From Bacillota bacterium (lineage in GTDB: Bacteria > Bacillota > Dethiobacteria > DTU022 > UBA8154), in the NCBI GenBank assembly GCA_012728375.1, contig JAAYFF010000003.1:5427-69426 (forward strand): 64,000 nt of DNA, read 5' to 3'. The notes under the pieces were generated by a model. The model was given only the letters and a program-made list of their open reading frames with translations, made no database searches and was not told the DNA's origin. A program made the translations under genes and the position numbers. Within the stretch, counting starts at the first letter, position 1. Each line of letters begins with the position of its first letter. Of the stretch, positions 37,293 through 63,524 are shown in pieces.

Positions 37293-38491
37293 CTTTTTCC
37301 CTCCATTTGCTCCCGGATAATCTCCAAGTCTTTATCTCCCCGGCCGGAGAGGTTGACGACAACAATCTGCCCTTCTTTAAGGGAAGGGGCCAGTTTCATA
37401 GTGTAAGCCAAGGCGTGTGCGGACTCCAGGGCGGGGATAATCCCCTCGGTGAGGCTGAGAAATTCTACGGCCTGTAGCGCTTCTTTGTCCAGTACGGCCG
37501 TGTAGTCGGCGCGGCCGCTTTCTTTCAGGTAGCTGTGTTCCGGACCGACGCCAGGGTAATCAAGACCCGCGGAAATGCTGTGTACCTCTGCAATATTGCC
37601 GTCTGCGTCCTGAAGAAGCAGCGACCTGGCACCGTGAAAAACTCCCGGCCTGCCCATGCTCAGTGTCGCGGCATGCCGTCCGCTTGCCGGGTCCTGCCCT
37701 CCGGCTTCCACCCCGACCATTTTTACTGTTTGCTCCTTCACAAAGGGGTAAAAAAGACCCATGGCATTGGAGCCGCCTCCCACACAGGCGATCAGATAGT
37801 CAGGCAGCCTGTTGTAGCGAGTTTTCAGCTGCTCTTTAACCTCTCGCCCGATGACAGACTGAAAATCCCGTACCATCATGGGAAAAGGGTGGGGCCCCAC
37901 CACAGAGCCCAAAAGATAGTGAGTCTCCCTTACGCTCGCTACCCAGTCCCTGAAAGCTTCGTTAACAGCCTCCTTCAGTGTTCCGTTTTCACCGCCCGCG
38001 GGTTTTACTTCAGCTCCCAGGAGCTGCATGCGGGCGACGTTGGGAGACTGGCGGGCCATATCCTTTTCGCCCATGTAGATAACGCACTCCATCTTGAGCA
38101 TGGCGCAGACCGCTGCCACAGCAACTCCGTGCTGTCCGGCCCCCGTTTCAGCAATAATGCGTTTTTTTCCCATCTTCACGGCCAGCAGCCCCTGTCCCAG
38201 CACATTGTTGATCTTGTGGGCTCCCGTATGCAACAGGTCCTCTCTTTTAAGAAAAATACGGGCTTTGCTCCCTAGCTTCTCTGCAAAGTTTACCGCCTCA
38301 TAAAGGGGTGTGGGGCGTCCCGCCCACTCGGCTAAAAGGCGGTAAAGTTCCCTCTGAAAATCCGGGTCTTTCTTCGCCTGCCGGTAGGCTTCCGTGAGCT
38401 CATCTAAAGCGGGAGCCAGTATTTCCGGCACGAAACGGCCGCCGAAGCTGCCGAAATATCCTTTTTCATCGGGTACCATATCATCTGTCAT
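37289..38491 (-). CDS. trpB: Tryptophan synthase beta
   Basis: [17 protein letters not shown] lysine, [22 protein letters not shown]; probable ATG at 38491. Confidence 0.97.
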
Positions 38492-39200
38492 TTCGGTTGT
38501 TTCCTTTCGCTGCGGAAGCATCCGCATGATATTTTGCCGGCAGATCCATGACTGCTCGCAAAAAACAAATTACTTTTTTTCTTTCCAGCCGTCCCGCGGT
38601 AGTAACCGCGCTAAAGGCATCAACAGCAAAAGGCTGCACTGTAGCGAGAGCATTTTTAATATTATTTTTATTTAACCCGCCTGCCAGAATAAGGGGGGAA
38701 GGATAGATTGCTTTGCGTATCCGCCTGGCAACCTCCAGGGGAAACTGTAGCCCGGTTGAGCCCACTTTTTCCGCTGTCATTGTATCCAGCAAAATAGCAT
38801 CGGCACCTGCCTCCACGTACTCCCTGGCACAACGCTCCGGGTCTGCCCCTTCCGCTAAACCTTTTTCCATCCAGTGCAGTGTTTTAATAATGGCTGTCTT
38901 AAGCTTTCTTTTTAAGAAGGCCACCTGTTCCACCGCATTAAAACCATGAAGCTGCACAGCATCAGGATTCACTTCTTTTGCCATGAAGATTACCCGTTCT
39001 GCTTGTTCCTCGGTAATGATTAAAATGGAGGTCACCAGAGGAGGAATCAGCCGGCGGAGGCCTCGTGCCTGTTCCAGGGAGAGGCGGCAGGGAAGTTTTT
39101 GCCTTACTTCCGTAATCAGGCCGATTCCATGGGCGCCTTCTTCCACCAGCATTTTTATATCGGAAGGCTCATAGCTTCCGCAAAGCATAACACGGGTCAT
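38481..39200 (-). CDS. trpF: Phosphoribosylanthranilate isomerase (divergent)
   Basis: MLCG, VQLHG, ILLD, LAGGLN, PFAVD; position in the trp operon. Confidence 0.85.
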
Positions 39201-39964
39201 GAAATTCTCCTCCCCCCAGGCATACTTGCCCTGACAAAGGAAGCCACTTTTTCTGCGGGCTTCCGGGAAAGCATAAAGGCCGTCCCTACGAGTACTGCAT
39301 CAGCACCGCATGACAGGGAAAAAAGGGCGTCGTCCGGGCTTCGGTGTGCGCTCTGGCAGACAAGAAGGGCGTCTCCTATTACTTGCCGGTAAGCCTCTGC
39401 TGTTTTTGGCGTTAGTCGTATTATATCCTCTTCTTTTTCCAATTTGTCGATATCTTTGTTATTAAAGCCCACACCGGTTAACTTTCCAGCGATTTCTTTT
39501 AAGCAGGGGATGTCTTCCGTTCCCCGCGTCTCTACCAAGGCTTCCATTCCATAGCTGTACACCTGCTCAAGCACCGCGGGGAGCTTCTCCTTTAGGAGGT
39601 GAGCGATGAGGAGGATGGTGACGCGGGATTTCCGGCTGTCTCCCAAACGGTCCAGTAATTCGGCGTAATAATCGATCCCTGTCTCATCAAAAATAAAGTC
39701 TTTGATAAGCAAAGGCAGAGTTGAAGCCCGCAGGACCGCAGGGATGTCTTCTTCCGGGTTTCCCCCGAAAAAGCGTTTTTCCGTAACGAGGGAGATCCCG
39801 GCTGCTCCGCCGTTTTCGTAATCTTTTGCCAGAAGCCCCGCATCCCGGCTGTCAGGGAGGTAATGATCCTTATCCGCCAGCTTGGGAATCAAGCGCTTTA
39901 TTTCCGCTATGACAGGGACAATACCTGCAGCTTTTGCTTTAATTAATGACTGTGCCAGGTTCAA
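39197..39964 (-). CDS. trpC: Indole-3-glycerol phosphate synthase (divergent)
   Basis: IAEIK, ISLVTE, LLIKDF, LVE, GFNN, VLVG; position in the trp operon. Confidence 0.82.
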   Translation of the reverse strand: MNLAQSLIKAKAAGIVPVIAEIKRLIPKLADKDHYLPDSRDAGLLAKDYENGGAAGISLVTEKRFFGGNPEEDIPAVLRASTLPLLIKDFIFDETGIDYYAELLDRLGDSRKSRVTILLIAHLLKEKLPAVLEQVYSYGMEALVETRGTEDIPCLKEIAGKLTGVGFNNKDIDKLEKEEDIIRLTPKTAEAYRQVIGDALLVCQSAHRSPDDALFSLSCGADAVLVGTAFMLSRKPAEKVASFVRASMPGGRRIS

Positions 39965-40994
39965 AAGCTTTACCCTCCTTTAACTCTTTTGATCTCCTGC
40001 TTATCTCTTCAACTTTAGCCATGGCGAGGCCTGAGTCCAGGGTATGCCGGGCAAGCTCAAAGCCTGCAAAAAGATCCTCGGCTTTTCCTCCTACCACCAT
40101 GGTGGCCGCCGCATTAAGCAGGAGCATATCACGCCTTGGGCCTTTGTCTTTCCCGCTGAAAATGTTTCTGATGATATTTGCGTTGTAAACAGGGCTGCCT
40201 CCCTTGATATCTTGGAGCGAACAACGGCGAAGCCCGAAATCTTCTGGAAATACACTGAAAGTCCTTATCTTGCCGTTTTTTATTTCTGCGATCTTTGTTT
40301 CACCCAGGAGAGACAATTCATCCAATCCGTCGGTGCCGTGAAGAACCATGACATGCTCAAAGCCAAGCATGGCCACCACTTCAGCCATCATATCCACAAG
40401 CTGGGGTTGATATACTCCCAGGACATGGCGTTTGGCACCGGCAGGATTAATTAGCGGTCCGATAATCGTAAAAAAAATTGTTTTGATACCCAGTTCATTT
40501 TCAGGTGAAAAAACTTTGAGCATGACGGGATGAAAAAGGGGGGCATAAAGGAAGGAAAAACCGGTTTCTTCGATGAGGAGCTCTGCCTGGCGGGGCTCCA
40601 GTTCTACTTCGATTCCCAGTGCCTCCAGGACATCAGCGCTTCCGGAAGAGGCAGATATAGAGCGGGAGCCGTGTTTCGCTATTTTAACTCCTGCAGCAGC
40701 AGAGAGGAGGGCGTTTGCACTGCTGACATTAAAGGTGGTCAAGCCGCCTCCTGTTCCGCAGGTGTCAGTTAACTTCCCGTTAACCCGGGGCCTGAGAGGA
40801 ATGCAAACCTGCTGCATAGAGCGTGCGATAGCAGCGATTTCACCCACTGTAGGCCCTTTCATTAACAGGGCCATTAAAAAGCCGGCAATTTGTACTTGAG
40901 AAAAACGATTCTCCGCAAGGCCTGTAATAACTTCATTTATTTCAGGCTGGCCCAGTTCTTCTTTCCGGGCAAGCTGCTTTAAAATTTCTTTCAT
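39939..40994 (-). CDS. trpD: Anthranilate phosphoribosyltransferase
   Basis: DTCGTGG, KHGSRSIS, GSADVLE, GPLINP, GLDE. Confidence 0.95.
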   Translation of the reverse strand: MKEILKQLARKEELGQPEINEVITGLAENRFSQVQIAGFLMALLMKGPTVGEIAAIARSMQQVCIPLRPRVNGKLTDTCGTGGGLTTFNVSSANALLSAAAGVKIAKHGSRSISASSGSADVLEALGIEVELEPRQAELLIEETGFSFLYAPLFHPVMLKVFSPENELGIKTIFFTIIGPLINPAGAKRHVLGVYQPQLVDMMAEVVAMLGFEHVMVLHGTDGLDELSLLGETKIAEIKNGKIRTFSVFPEDFGLRRCSLQDIKGGSPVYNANIIRNIFSGKDKGPRRDMLLLNAAATMVVGGKAEDLFAGFELARHTLDSGLAMAKVEEISRRSKELKEGKAFEPGTVIN

Positions 40995-41136
40995 GTGTTA
41001 AAATCTCCCTTCTTTTCGGTAAAAATAACAGATAAAATTCCGGGCAATGAATGCACCGGTTGAAAACGGTTAATTTAGCCCTTGCGGGCCATCTCCAGAG
41101 CCAGGTCTTATTTTTAAATATGCAGCTTTGCAACAT
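40942..41136 (-). CDS. Putative Trp-rich leader ORF (TrpL-like) overlapping the trpD start
   Basis: AAGGAGG RBS, ATG 41136, W-L-W-R-W codons at 41103-41089; lies between the T-box terminator and trpD. Confidence 0.7.
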   Translation of the reverse strand: MLQSCIFKNKTWLWRWPARAKLTVFNRCIHCPEFYLLFLPKRREILTHERNFKAACPERRTGPA

Positions 41137-41164
41137 GATAAAATTTCCTCCTTAGTTTTTTAAA

Positions 41165-41470
41165 ATAAAAATGCCCTTCGCCTTGAAAAGGGCGAGGGGC
41201 AAATATGCCTTCGCGGTGCCACCTTAACTTACCGGGCCTGTAGGCCGGTATCTCTTTGAACAGGTACGGAAACCCTGCCGCTTCTGCCGGCAAAGTATCG
41301 ATACCCCGAGCTCTATTAACGGTGCTCTATCCGTCAGGAGCTACTTGACCAGCCGTTCGCCCTTGCATCTTCCAGGTCCATTCACCGCCTGCGCTAGGAC
41401 CGGGTTCCCACCTTTCCCGGTTCTCTGGGCCTCCGCTTTGCCGGCTACTCTTCCCGTGCATCGATTTTAA
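41165..41470 (-). promoter_or_regulatory. T-box riboswitch, Trp specifier
   Basis: AGTA and AGAGA stem I motifs, GAA-TGG specifier (41380-41378), T-box AAGGTGGCACCGCG (41225-41212), terminator GCCCCTCGCCC-TTTTCAA-GGCGAAGGGC plus U tract. Confidence 0.93.
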
Positions 41471-41548
41471 TAATATTAATTTTCTTTATATCTTAGATTT
41501 ATATCTTAAATTTCTGTTTTTGTCAATTCATTTTTAGACCTAGATAAT

Positions 41549-41625
41549 AAAAAAGCGGAGAAACACTTTGCCGAAGATCCTCTCTTCATTCTCTATACCT
41601 CCGGGCAAAAAGGTGCATTCTCCGC
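41549..41625 (-). terminator. acsA terminator-like hairpin with an unusual 31-nt loop
   Basis: GCGGAGAA/TTCTCCGC, CAC/GTG and TTTGCC/GGCAAA pairing, U tract on the minus strand; loop encodes AEDPLFILYTSG on +. Confidence 0.7.
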
Positions 41626-41695
41626 GTAAATAACATAATCAATTATTTTGCTCTTGTTGAATTATTATCGAATTATAATCAGATTATTTTCCTTT

Positions 41696-43417
41696 TTAAT
41701 CATCTTCAAGGGTAGACAAATCGCCGACCGGCAGACCCATTTCCTGTGCTTTGAGAACCCGGCGCATAATCTTGCCGCTGCGGGTTTTCGGCAGCTTGTC
41801 CACGACTTCGATTTCTCTTGGTGCGGCGTGAGCAGCCAAACCTAATTTAACAAATTGCTTTAGTTCTTTGTCGAGCTCTTCGCTCCAGGTGTAACCAGGG
41901 GCCAATGTGATGAAGGCCTTAATAATATTGCCGCGGACTTCGTCCGGTTTGCCGATAACGCCGGCCTCGGCTACGGCCGGGTGTTCGACCAGCTTGCTTT
42001 CAACTTCAAAGGGGCCAACCCTTTCCCCGGCGGTTTTAATCACGTCGTCGTTACGTCCCTGGAACCAAATATATCCGTCTTCGTCCATAAAGGCCTGGTC
42101 ACCGGAAACATACCAGGGGTCGTTTTTGAAATACTCGTTGTATTTCTCGGGATTTCTCCATATTTCTTTCATCATTCCCGGCCAGCCTTTTTTCAAAGAG
42201 AGGTTGCCCATTTGCATCGGCGGCAGGACATTCCCGTCGTCATCGGTAATGGCTGCTTCCACGCCGGGAATCGGTTTGCACATGGAGCCCACACGGATCG
42301 GTTCGCAGGGGTAGCAGCAAACCATATTGACACCGGTTTCCGTCATGAACCAGGTTTCGTGAATGCGCACATTGAAAACGCGCATGGCCCACATGATCAC
42401 TTCCGGGTTTAAGGGTTCGCCGACGCTGGTAATGTGTCTTAATTTTGACAAGTTATATTTTTTCACAACGTCGTCCCCGGCAGCTGCCAGCATTCTAAAT
42501 GCGGTGGGCGCGCTGTACCATACGGTTACGCCGTATTTTTCCAAAGTGGAATACCAGTCTTCAACGCTGAAACGGCCGCCTCTGACTATGGTAGCTTTTC
42601 CGACCAGCCAGGGGCCCCATACGGAATAGGAAACGCCGGTGATCCAGCCCGGGTCAGCAGTGCACCAGAAAACGTCGTCATCCTGCACATCGTGAGCAAT
42701 TCTCATGGTAAAGTATTGACCCACCATGATGTTGTGGGTATGGAGTACCCCTTTGGGTTTCCCGGTGGAACCGGAGGTGTATAGCAGGAACATGGGATCG
42801 TCCCTGGTCAGCCATACCGGCGTAAAATCAGCTGAAGCTTTGGCCATTTCCTTTTCGTAGGAAAGTTCGCCGGGTTCCAGACTGTTTTCATCCGCGCCGA
42901 TGACGATGACGTGTTTCAAGTGGGGCAGTTCATCCTTTTTAATGCGGCTTTTTTGGCCGACGGTGGTGACAATGGCAACAGCTTCGCTGTCCAGCATCCG
43001 GTCTTTGACTGCTTCTTCCATAAACGCTTCAAAAAGGGGACCGGCAATAGCGCCCATTTTTACGATTCCGGCAAAAGAGATAAGCATTTCCGGGCTTCTT
43101 GGGATAAATAGAAATACCCGATCGCCTTTTTTGATTCCCAGATTGGTCAGGACATTAGCGAATTTATTGCTCTGCTCTTTGAGTTCGGCAAAAGTAACTT
43201 TTACATCTTTTTCGCTGTCACTATAAAGTATTGCAGGCTCGTCGCCCTTACCCCTTTCAACCCAGCGGTCGATGGCCTCGTAGGCAATGTTTACTTTGCC
43301 GGTAGTATACCAGCTAAATTCTTTTTCAACGTCTTCCCAGGAAAAGTTCTTGCGGAATTCTTCATAGTTTTCCATGTTGTGTTTACCTGGTGACGGCGGC
43401 AGTACTTCATATTTCAT
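41696..43417 (-). CDS. acsA: Acetate--CoA ligase (Bacillus AcsA type)
   Basis: YTSGSTGKPKG, WCTADPGW, SVGEPLNP, LPKTRSGKIMRR with the acetylatable Lys. Confidence 0.93.
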   Translation of the reverse strand: MKYEVLPPSPGKHNMENYEEFRKNFSWEDVEKEFSWYTTGKVNIAYEAIDRWVERGKGDEPAILYSDSEKDVKVTFAELKEQSNKFANVLTNLGIKKGDRVFLFIPRSPEMLISFAGIVKMGAIAGPLFEAFMEEAVKDRMLDSEAVAIVTTVGQKSRIKKDELPHLKHVIVIGADENSLEPGELSYEKEMAKASADFTPVWLTRDDPMFLLYTSGSTGKPKGVLHTHNIMVGQYFTMRIAHDVQDDDVFWCTADPGWITGVSYSVWGPWLVGKATIVRGGRFSVEDWYSTLEKYGVTVWYSAPTAFRMLAAAGDDVVKKYNLSKLRHITSVGEPLNPEVIMWAMRVFNVRIHETWFMTETGVNMVCCYPCEPIRVGSMCKPIPGVEAAITDDDGNVLPPMQMGNLSLKKGWPGMMKEIWRNPEKYNEYFKNDPWYVSGDQAFMDEDGYIWFQGRNDDVIKTAGERVGPFEVESKLVEHPAVAEAGVIGKPDEVRGNIIKAFITLAPGYTWSEELDKELKQFVKLGLAAHAAPREIEVVDKLPKTRSGKIMRRVLKAQEMGLPVGDLSTLEDD

Positions 43418-43514
43418 TAATTTCCCCTCCGTATATTAAAATGTTATATTGTTATGAGGCCGTAAAAACTCACCTCCTGGCGGCCTTAAATTTCTTTCTG
43501 CAATGGTTGCTGCT

Positions 43515-44129
43515 TTAATCCAGCTGTTCTCTGGCCCGGGGCCGGAAAGGGATCGGCTCGGCAATGGTATTTACCAGGTTTTTAGCCATTTCCCGGAAGA
43601 TATTCTCCATCATTTTAAGAGAATAAGCCTGATCAAGACGGTAGGGATGATAAAGAACAGTAATCCCCGATTTGCTTACCACAGGATTTAAAGAGAAAAA
43701 ATTAAGATCTATCGGGAGGCAACCCTGTTTGAGAAAAAATGCTTTTCTTTTTTGGTAATTATCTTTTTCGCGGCCCACTTCGAGTATATGGCCGCTGCAC
43801 TTCGGGTAAAGTTCCTTTAAAAAATCGACCGTATGGCAATATAACTGGGAGCCGATACCCCGGTTGCGGTAGTCTTCCAGCATAACCAATGCTTCAATGA
43901 ATCCCACTTGATTCTTGGGGAAATGGTAGAATATGGAAAAACCTACCAGCTCTCCCAGGCAGTCAGCATAAATAATGTGGGCTTTAGCCTGTTCAGGTTT
44001 GTTGGATTGCAGTTTGCTGACCAGGGAATTTATCTCCTTGATGGAATAGTGAAAGGTCTCTATGCAATATTCAATAACGGTCTTGAAGTAAAAGGAATTA
44101 AGGTTACGCAATTCAAGGAACCTGAACAT
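43515..44129 (-). CDS. GNAT family N-acetyltransferase
   Basis: IEALVMLEDYRNRGIGSQL acetyl-CoA motif A; probable ATG 44129. Confidence 0.8.
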   Translation of the reverse strand: MFRFLELRNLNSFYFKTVIEYCIETFHYSIKEINSLVSKLQSNKPEQAKAHIIYADCLGELVGFSIFYHFPKNQVGFIEALVMLEDYRNRGIGSQLYCHTVDFLKELYPKCSGHILEVGREKDNYQKRKAFFLKQGCLPIDLNFFSLNPVVSKSGITVLYHPYRLDQAYSLKMMENIFREMAKNLVNTIAEPIPFRPRAREQLD

Positions 44130-44169
44130 ATTCCTTCCCTCATCTCCCACAGATCCTATATACTAAACC

Positions 44170-44185
44170 TGCAATTTGCGTGCCA
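44170..44185 (-). promoter_or_regulatory. Sigma54 (-24/-12) promoter for GNAT-acsA
   Basis: TGGCAC-GCAAA-TTGCA consensus about 40 bp before the GNAT start. Confidence 0.88.
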
Positions 44186-44268
44186 TCGTTGCCTGTAAAG
44201 TTAAAAGCCCCGTATTTGGGGCATCTTTGCGTCAAATGGCCGGTCATTTTGTCTGCAATGTGAAAAAA

Positions 44269-44293
44269 ATTGCCTGCAAAAAATGCAGGCAAT
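44269..44293. promoter_or_regulatory. Candidate upstream activator site for the sigma54 activator
   Basis: Perfect inverted repeat ATTGCCTGCA-N5-TGCAGGCAAT about 85-110 bp upstream of the -24 box. Confidence 0.55.
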
Positions 44294-44355
44294 AAGAATA
44301 AAATGACCGAATATGAAATATTTACATATGAATATATTTCAAATAAATTGTTACT

Positions 44356-46110
44356 TCAGGCCAATCCGTGTTTTTCCAGTTTGTAATATAGGCTTCTGAC
44401 AGCAATACCGAGCAGGCGTGCTGCCTTTGTTTTATTGCCCTTTGTCTGTTGCAGCGTTTCCATCAAGATGTTTTTTTCGGTGAGATCCAGTATCTTGCTG
44501 AGGCTTCCTGCGGGGTTGTCTTCTAGGGCCGGCTTGGCAAGATAGTTTTCTGCATTTATTCCGGTTTTTTTTCTTTGTTCGGTAAGGTTTTCCGGCAAAT
44601 GCCGGGGCAAAATTATTTCTTCATTTTTATCCATTTGAATCATCGCCCGGCCCAGAACATTTTCTAATTCCCTCACATTGCCCGGCCAATCATAATTCAT
44701 CAGCAATCTAAAAACAGCAGGGGAAATTTTAATTACTTTCCGTTTATACTCCTGCTGCAGTTTTTTACAGAGAAAAGCGGAAAGTAAAGGGATGTCATCT
44801 TTGCGGACCCGAAGCGGCGGCACGAAAATGGGGACAACATTGAGGCGATAATACAAATCTTCACGAAAGGTGCCTTCACTGATGCGCTGTTCCAGATTGG
44901 CGTTAGTTGCGGCGATTACCCGTACGTTTACAGGTATTGGCCGGGTACCCCCGACCCGGATAATCTCTTTTTCCTGCAATACTCTGAGGAGTTTCGCCTG
45001 CAAAGCAAGGTTAATGTCGCCAATCTCGTCAAGAAATATAGTGCCCCCGTTGGCTTCCTCAAAGTACCCCTTTTTGCCGCCCCGGACAGCCCCGGTAAAA
45101 GCTCCTTCTTCGTAGCCAAACAACTCGCTTTCCAGCAAGGACTCTACAATAGCCACGCAATTTACCCTGATAAAAGGTCCCTTGCTCCTACCGCTGGCAT
45201 TATGGATGGCATGGGCGAATAATTCTTTTCCGGTACCGCTTTCCCCGCGAAGAAGTACGGTAGCGGGTGTGTCGGAGGCGTGCTGTGCCTGCGCGATGGC
45301 TGCCTGCAAAGGTTCACTTTCGCCGATTATGTCGTCAAAGGTATATTTGGCCTGCAAATGCCTGATTAGCTTTCTGGCGTTGGCCAGTTCCTCAGACAAC
45401 TGTATAATTTCCGTAATGTCATGGATAACCCCGACACTGCCGCGTAGTTTGCCGTCCACGATGACAGGGGCCACATTGACCACGACTTCTTTTTTTGCAG
45501 GGCCCATCTTCAGCCGGACCCCGCGCACCTGTTGTCTGGTTTTAAGCACTTTTAAATGCATGCTTTCTCCTTCTGTTACAGCTACGGAGGCAGGTTTGTG
45601 CAAAACATCCTCTTCCGTGAGACCGGTAATTTTTGTGTACGCCGGATTAATTAAAATCCCGTTTCCTTCTTCATTGACCACTGTGATGGCATCGTCTGTG
45701 GCGTGAAGAATGGCTTCCAGCAGTGACCTTGTTTCTCTTAGTTCAGCTACCTGTTGTTCAAGATTTTTTATCCCGGTGATATCGCACATGATTGCCGCGG
45801 CGCCGGTGATTTTACCCGGTTGGTTTTTCAGCGGAATGCAGCCGGCGACAACGGTGAAATCGCCGATCTGTAATTGTTTGTTGAATTCAGGAACACCTGT
45901 TTGCATTACGGTCTGCAACATTTGTTTCAGGGCAGGTACAGGGAAAGTCTCCGGCAGTGAAGTGCCAATCACGTCGGCTCCTTTTATACCGGTGATTTTT
46001 TCCGCTGCATGATTGAATATGGTTACTTCACTTTTTTCATTTATTGTGATTACGGCATCGCTTGAAATTTGAAGTATGGCATGGTAGCTGTCATGATTTA
46101 TTTTTTCCAA
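44356..46110 (-). CDS. PAS-PAS sigma54-dependent Fis family activator
   Basis: GESGTGKELFA, GAFTGA, FLDEI, RVIAATN, WPGNVRELEN, C-terminal HTH. Confidence 0.95.
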   Translation of the reverse strand: MEKINHDSYHAILQISSDAVITINEKSEVTIFNHAAEKITGIKGADVIGTSLPETFPVPALKQMLQTVMQTGVPEFNKQLQIGDFTVVAGCIPLKNQPGKITGAAAIMCDITGIKNLEQQVAELRETRSLLEAILHATDDAITVVNEEGNGILINPAYTKITGLTEEDVLHKPASVAVTEGESMHLKVLKTRQQVRGVRLKMGPAKKEVVVNVAPVIVDGKLRGSVGVIHDITEIIQLSEELANARKLIRHLQAKYTFDDIIGESEPLQAAIAQAQHASDTPATVLLRGESGTGKELFAHAIHNASGRSKGPFIRVNCVAIVESLLESELFGYEEGAFTGAVRGGKKGYFEEANGGTIFLDEIGDINLALQAKLLRVLQEKEIIRVGGTRPIPVNVRVIAATNANLEQRISEGTFREDLYYRLNVVPIFVPPLRVRKDDIPLLSAFLCKKLQQEYKRKVIKISPAVFRLLMNYDWPGNVRELENVLGRAMIQMDKNEEIILPRHLPENLTEQRKKTGINAENYLAKPALEDNPAGSLSKILDLTEKNILMETLQQTKGNKTKAARLLGIAVRSLYYKLEKHGLA

Positions 46111-63354: not shown

Positions 63355-63524
63355 CAAATGAAAGAGGAATGTTAGTCTAATGTGCGGGGACACACCTCTT
63401 GCAGAGGAATGTCCCCAATAAGATGACACAATATTTAGTTAAATCGGGTGTTTTTAAGACCGGTGAAGCCCGCTACTGTATTCGAAAAGTCTGTTCCAAA
63501 AGTGTAAAGAAAAGAGAAATTTTT

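Follow-up and report, generated by a model that had tools for sequence, protein, structure and literature searches.

The acsA terminator and its fold

The locus raises the question of why the terminator of one acetyl-CoA synthetase gene should hold, in antisense orientation, a piece of the coding sequence for the AMP-binding motif of such an enzyme. The window, that is the whole stretch of 64,000 nucleotides that was analysed, contains the following features at the 3' end of acsA.

41696 to 43417, minus strand: acsA, a Bacillus-type AMP-forming acetate--CoA ligase of 573 aa (NF003313, 871 bits against a cut-off of 729)
41672 to 41699, minus strand: promoter-like sequence TTAAAA-16-TATAAT from a promoter scan, overlapping the acsA stop codon and not clearly conserved in other species
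41636 to 41642, minus strand: UUGAUUA motif about 10 nt 5' of the hairpin, conserved in Dethiobacter
41555 to 41625, minus strand: intrinsic terminator hairpin of acsA, identified by folding, with an architecture kept in 6 copies and an inserted acs fragment as its apex
41569 to 41604, minus strand: 36-nt stretch complementary to codons 267-278 of the acs mRNA (match at G000:C62:29533-29568)
41579 to 41596, minus strand: predicted open loop of 18 nt, AUAGAGAAUGAAGAGAGG, without base pairs in the MFE structure or the centroid structure
41543 to 41554, minus strand: U-tract UUUUUUAUUAUC, which completes the acsA terminator, with TTTTTT invariant in 6/6 copies

The plus strand from 41570 to 41605 reads GCC GAA GAT CCT CTC TTC ATT CTC TAT ACC TCC GGG and translates to AEDPLFILYTSG. 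This translation and the minus-strand fold confirm the preliminary description, according to which an Acs AMP-binding motif is encoded here, antisense at the acsA terminator. Read on the minus strand from 41625 to 41555, the hairpin has a basal stem, GCGGAGAA/UUCUCCGC, and then UUUUUUAUUAU; a middle stem is present between the basal stem and the inner one, CCGGAGGU/AUCUUCGG. The free energy is -28.6 kcal/mol (z = -3.4), and equally good folds were found in 0/200 shuffles. The open loop had been described as 31 nt long; it is predicted to be only 18 nt (41579-41596) because the ends of the fragment pair together (CCGGAGGU/AUCUUCGG).

A stem-loop followed by U6 is thus found on the gene strand, 70 nt past the acsA stop, and as modelled it is a textbook intrinsic terminator except for its oversized apex. 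It was missed by a simple terminator scanner because the loop limit of the scanner is 8 nt. None of the Rfam 15 covariance models matches the hairpin when positions 38000-46000 are searched at E<=1; the sole match in that interval is a T-box at 41185-41470, at the start of the next operon, trpDCF. The hairpin lies in the acsA 3' UTR and has its terminator in common with acsA, which is the location of a 3' UTR-derived sRNA. From the promoter-like sequence at 41672-41699 on the minus strand, a transcript of its own, about 115 nt long, could arise. The UUGAUUA motif (41636-41642, minus strand), which also precedes the Pelotomaculum acsA terminator, one without an insert, is a possible processing or binding site, and if it marks processing it could likewise yield a separate RNA from the acsA 3' end.

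Source of the apical sequence

The apical sequence comes from a second synthetase gene of the same genome. In the window's genome (G000; 2.38 Mb, 88 contigs), positions 41569-41604 of the plus strand equal the sense strand of a canonical acs at 35/36 bases, with an exact 32-nt core at 41573-41604. The only other match to the 36-mer in the 2.38 Mb is at G000:C62:29533-29568, within a gene whose 664-aa product scores 953 bits with TIGR02188 and has the domains ACAS_N, AMP-binding and AMP-binding_C. The chance expectation for an exact 32-mer match in such a genome is about 1e-12. The corresponding motif region of acsA itself agrees with the core at 24/32 positions, the same count as had been given at the outset, and the early suggestion that the fragment derives from another acs, to be checked by a genome search for a near-perfect match, is borne out by the 35/36 identity to the canonical gene on C62.

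The lone mismatch in the 36 nt is GCC in the hairpin against GCU in acs, which between two RNAs makes a G.U pair. The duplex predicted between hairpin and acs mRNA is 36 bp long, and once the unfolding of both partners is counted its net cofold ddG is -32 kcal/mol; the motif of acsA itself pairs with the hairpin much worse than the acs target does. In the predicted fold, the 18-nt loop (41579-41596, minus strand) is the likely nucleation site for pairing with the acs mRNA.

Two exact 32-bp repeats on different contigs could also act at the DNA level, as a recombination site for inversion or for phase variation that splits acs, or the plus strand could be a sense decoy; a promoter-like TTGTCA-17-GATAAT ends at 41548 on that strand. 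However, repeats of only 32 bp are very short substrates for homologous recombination, no recombinase gene is adjacent to the hairpin, the plus-strand promoter-like sequence is not conserved in other species, and no U-tract follows the hairpin on the plus strand. Such a role is considered very improbable. A plus-strand peptide was also tried as a candidate and rejected: the frame crosses the hairpin to a TAA, and there is no start codon after the upstream TAA.

When G000 was searched genome-wide for coding fragments in non-coding DNA, the results were for the most part REP-like palindromes and CRISPR-like arrays, with one further two-copy pair and no sign of a general family of terminators with coding fragments. 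The pair (G000:C18:3076-3133 and G000:C69:1012-1069) is 58 nt long and 98% identical; the C69 copy lies within a 578-aa ORF on a 2-kb contig and the C18 copy is inverted and non-coding. The CRISPR-like arrays have repeats of 30-34 nt with a period of about 67-68 nt and include G000:C67:24850-25295 and G000:C86:200-310. A family of tandem 44-nt repeats (G000:C86:77190-77365) is found on several contigs, among them a copy at about 63376-63418 of the window (C58:68802-68844).

Insertion into an older terminator

Outside the genus Dethiobacter, the terminators of acsA orthologues have the form (A/G)CGGAG..(C/G)CACC-short loop-GGTG..CTCCGC-Un, with an apical loop of a few nucleotides. The Dethiobacter acsA terminators have the same skeleton but are longer by about 43 nt, precisely at the apex; this stretch was therefore inserted in Dethiobacter. 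The insert of G003 can be read as 40 nt, identical at 38/40 to the acs of G003. The sequence at the outer ends of the insert has since drifted, and today it forms part of the middle stem.

The element is found directly 3' of acsA in 5/5 of the Dethiobacter species analysed, and the JGI and Logan metagenome contigs L224, L225, L227 and L228 are further carriers. Presence in related genomes had been named as a check at the outset, and the loop is conserved in all five species (5/5). Between these five species the intergenic DNA that flanks the element is unalignable, and their acs genes are mutually 77-86% identical in nucleotide sequence. A pseudogene or decaying remnant was rejected as a description of the element: the core is invariant save at co-varying sites, while the flanks cannot be aligned.

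An assembly chimera had been raised as an alternative. It would have in its favour that a 32-mer confuses k-mer assemblers and that L227 and L228 end inside the repeat, and against it the long contigs of five species and of further samples, from different groups and assemblers and with species-specific flanks and variants. Contigs that end within the 32-mer, as these two Logan contigs do, reflect the behaviour of a k=31 assembler at a true 32-bp repeat, and k=31 assemblies will often break here. The recurrence in independent assemblies leaves a chimera next to no probability, and it was rejected.

In G003 there is a second copy of the whole module (about 100 nt), at 1501-1609 of L013 (G003:C11), 3' of sufS-sufU, with a gene for a molybdopterin oxidoreductase in convergent orientation. 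At least once, therefore, the module was copied to the end of another gene.

Co-variation between hairpin and acs

The 32-nt core of each acsA-linked hairpin is identical to the acs of its own species, except in G002, where 26 identical nucleotides are followed by a 1-nt bulge and 7 more identical ones. Within Dethiobacter only two substitutions are found in the core of acs, both synonymous: CTC to CTT in G003 and ATT to ATC in G002. Each is mirrored in the hairpin of the same species, and just outside the core a change from ACA to ACT in G001 is mirrored in the G001 hairpin as well. When all were compared with all, every acsA-linked hairpin was closest to the acs of its own species. If one substitution per partner in the 32-nt core is assumed, the two would coincide by chance in both position and base with a probability of about 0.01-0.02 in each lineage, and this coincidence occurred twice; the evidence consists of two core sites and one flanking site in five species. 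The complementarity to acs is conserved and co-varies across species, as is looked for between a trans-acting sRNA and its target. An inversion relic, another of the alternatives in the preliminary description, is rejected on these grounds, the hairpin following the synonymous changes of acs and being conserved in 5/5 species.

The suf-linked copy of G003 behaves differently from the acsA-linked one. Its acs-derived part is rearranged and is 5 edits from the G003 acs; at the position where T is found in acs and in the acsA-linked copy alike, it has retained the ancestral C. Identity to acs is therefore not automatic throughout the genome and has been maintained at the acsA-linked copy, the suf-linked one having decayed.

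Identity between hairpin and acs could also be kept up without any RNA function, if the insert were a neutral relic of filler DNA or template switching in which occasional non-allelic gene conversion restores the acs sequence. Concerted evolution likewise gives hairpin cores that match the acs of their own species, and captured short fragments do occur elsewhere, the C18/C69 pair of G000 being an example. However, the longest identity left after the substitution is only 20 nt in G003 and 17 nt in G002. RecA-dependent exchange usually requires a longer minimum of identity than these 17-20 nt. In every species the core is directly abutted by a fixed difference, GCC in the hairpin and GCT in acs, and the suf-linked copy in G003 has not been homogenised. 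Survival of the element in 5/5 species despite unalignable flanks is left unexplained by a neutral relic, and we regard this reading as unlikely.

It might also be that only the structure matters, the insert lengthening and stabilising the acsA terminator or 3' end by whatever sequence, to the benefit of mRNA stability or of termination efficiency, or, in a variant, that pairing with the acs mRNA acts on acsA through destabilisation or read-through. The terminator architecture is kept in all copies, and the whole module is reused behind sufSU in G003, both of which fit such a role. An effect of structure alone requires neither an invariant 18-nt loop nor a loop that follows the synonymous changes of acs, and the stem positions are far more variable than the loop. 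The genes downstream of acsA vary, with the trp operon in G000 and a convergent gene in L224; because they differ between species, control of read-through is not a conserved function. A purely structural role, with its variant, is judged distinctly unlikely.

Synonymous constraint on the acs target

The target codons in acs were compared in the four complete Dethiobacter acs genes, with codon columns restricted to invariant, degenerate amino acids. Among the codons for EDPLFILYTS, 2/10 vary, against 71% over the whole gene (binomial P=0.0013). The divergence of the EDPLFILYTSG window is 0.056, the gene mean being 0.189, and this places it among the least divergent of 654 windows of 11 codons. 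The lowest of all (0.030) is shifted one codon upstream, where it takes in the codon for Ala that is part of the 36-nt duplex.

In an equally divergent control genus from the same family, 5/8 codons at the acs motif are variable (P=0.42). The outgroup G046 has an Acs with 81% identity and, in its assembly, neither acsA nor the hairpin; it differs from G000 at 6/10 target codons, while G000 and G004 differ at 0/10 (P=0.002). Since the control genus and G046 vary freely, the amino acid motif alone is insufficient to account for the nucleotide conservation. To judge from these codon comparisons, synonymous change in the acs target is constrained only in species that have the hairpin. Gene conversion leaves this depletion, confined to hairpin-bearing species, unexplained.

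The 26-mer core string is not unique to Dethiobacter and is found in the acs of many unrelated taxa, so that part of the target conservation is due to the amino acid motif and codon usage. A metagenome scan with the 26-mer core gave 89 matches, all of them inside acs genes of diverse taxa, and no new hairpins. In the metagenome contigs L122, L142, L157 and L178 the acs frame breaks right after ...EDPLF(I/M)LYT, which may reflect a eukaryotic intron or an insertion.

The acsA locus and a possible regulatory role

Upstream of acsA the window contains three further features.

43515 to 44150, minus strand: GNAT acetyltransferase, co-oriented with acsA and directly upstream of it, an AcuA-like position
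44171 to 44185, minus strand: sigma-54 promoter TGGCAC-N5-TTGCA (TGGCACGCAAATTGC) before GNAT-acsA, a perfect motif match
44356 to 46110, minus strand: PAS-domain sigma-54 enhancer-binding protein, directly upstream of GNAT-acsA

The PAS-domain protein is the likely activator of GNAT-acsA; promoter, activator and the two genes would form a sigma-54-controlled AcuA-like/AcsA module. The GNAT-acsA order is repeated in contigs L223 and L227. The canonical acs has a promoter of the near-consensus TTGACA-17-TATAAT type. It is followed on its 3' side by a gene for a 689-aa ADP-forming acetyl-CoA-synthetase-like protein (L229 6412-8481, G000:C62) with the domains ATP-grasp_5, Succ_CoA_lig and CoA_binding, and with acs, acsA and this gene G000 therefore has three acetate/acetyl-CoA routes. 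Both RNase III and Hfq are encoded in G000.

In the family of the window, a Bacillus-type acsA and a canonical acs occur together only in Dethiobacter. The closest AcsA proteins outside the genus, at 88-92% amino acid identity, are those of Pelotomaculum and Desulfotomaculaceae MAGs, which belong to a different class. Dethiobacter is the sole genus of its family with acsA, and identity to Pelotomaculum proteins reaches 92%; both observations suggest a recent horizontal acquisition of acsA, probably along with the terminator skeleton and UUGAUUA. We infer that the acs insert in the terminator postdates this acquisition.

Taken together, the conservation, the co-variation and the synonymous constraint make it fairly probable that the 3' end of the acsA mRNA is a trans-acting antisense element which down-regulates acs upon sigma-54-driven induction of GNAT-acsA; transcription of the element, its pairing in vivo, and both the direction and the sign of its effect are what we infer from these patterns. 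The chances are about even for the fuller history, in which the riboregulator was born in the manner of a plant miRNA, by capture of an inverted piece of its target in a terminator loop, and has co-evolved with that target since, the acquired acsA silencing the resident acs so that the two are expressed in a mutually exclusive way.

The steps would be as follows. In the Dethiobacter ancestor about 40-45 nt of acs (codons ~266-279, the AEDPLFILYTSGST region) would have been inserted, inverted, into the apical loop of the acsA terminator. Each acsA transcript, or a stable 3' fragment made by processing or from a local promoter, would then end in a hairpin with an 18-nt loop and 32-36 nt antisense to acs. 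When the sigma-54/PAS activator switches on GNAT-acsA, abundant 3' ends would bear the antisense loop, and the terminator RNA would pair deep in the coding region of the acs mRNA, itself made from a sigma-A-type promoter. Pairing would begin at the loop and proceed until about 36 bp had formed, a duplex which RNase III would cleave or which would block elongating ribosomes. Both partners might be degraded together, making the acsA and acs mRNAs mutually exclusive. The constitutive Acs would be turned down as the acetylation-controlled AcsA takes over, leaving one AMP-forming acetyl-CoA synthetase at a time. The efficiency of pairing in vivo is uncertain, because the target lies deep in a coding region and much of the antisense sequence is held in stems, with the 18-nt loop free.

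If this is true, the locus is a natural example of the birth of a trans-acting antisense regulator, in which a terminator loop supplies transcription, a stabilising structure and a 3' end at once. It would also be a simple way to wire a newly acquired paralogue into the regulation of its host, so that two isoenzymes are not made together. A search recipe would follow, namely to look for terminator loops with perfect antisense to distant coding regions, and more such regulators are possible in poorly studied Bacillota.

Comparison with known systems

A literature search in a limited collection found no precedent for a terminator loop with a captured antisense piece of a paralogue, and returned only general work on 3' UTR-derived sRNAs. 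Among these, SdhX from sdhCDAB-sucABCD represses ackA (PMC6393394), and FarS, GlnZ, RsaC and RsaG are 3' UTR-derived sRNAs that link metabolic operons (reviewed in PMC9438474). The acsA hairpin resembles them in that regulator and metabolic mRNA have one 3' end and one terminator in common, and it would couple the expression of one enzyme to repression of another in the same pathway; SdhX likewise acts on acetate metabolism. The known 3' UTR-derived sRNAs pair through short and imperfect seeds of 7-12 nt, which arose where they now stand and are usually found 5' of the terminator, whereas in acsA a perfect pairing region of 32-36 nt was captured from the coding sequence of the target and lies in the terminator loop. 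The target also differs, being a paralogue (isoenzyme) of the host gene.

Other bacterial RNAs share part of this arrangement. Cis-encoded antisense RNAs, and likewise the trans-acting ones to multicopy genes, among them type I antitoxins and transposase antisense RNAs, have long perfect complementarity and probable RNase III-dependent processing, as would the acsA hairpin. Such cis-encoded or multicopy antisense RNAs are transcribed opposite the target locus or its duplicate, whereas at acsA a 36-nt piece has been transplanted into the 3' end of another mRNA. In RNAIII of Staphylococcus aureus, 3' hairpins including the terminator H14 pair with mRNAs and trigger cleavage by RNase III. Here too the loop of a terminator or 3' hairpin would start pairing with an mRNA in a Firmicute, with RNase III cleavage to follow. 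RNAIII uses short C-rich loops against Shine-Dalgarno regions and has many targets, while the acsA hairpin has one long, perfect match deep in one coding region.

Allen et al. are said to have described in 2004 how plant miRNA genes are born by inverted duplication of fragments of their target genes. The likeness is that a locus able to form a hairpin takes up an inverted copy of a piece of the future target, and this piece and the target then evolve together. The differences are that plants belong to another domain of life and use Dicer/AGO, as against a bacterial terminator with RNase III, and that in the acsA hairpin only one arm or loop derives from the target. From the bacterial examples found, the acsA hairpin differs in pairing through a long, perfect, captured piece of the coding sequence of its target, in carrying it in the terminator loop itself, and in being directed at the paralogue of its host gene.
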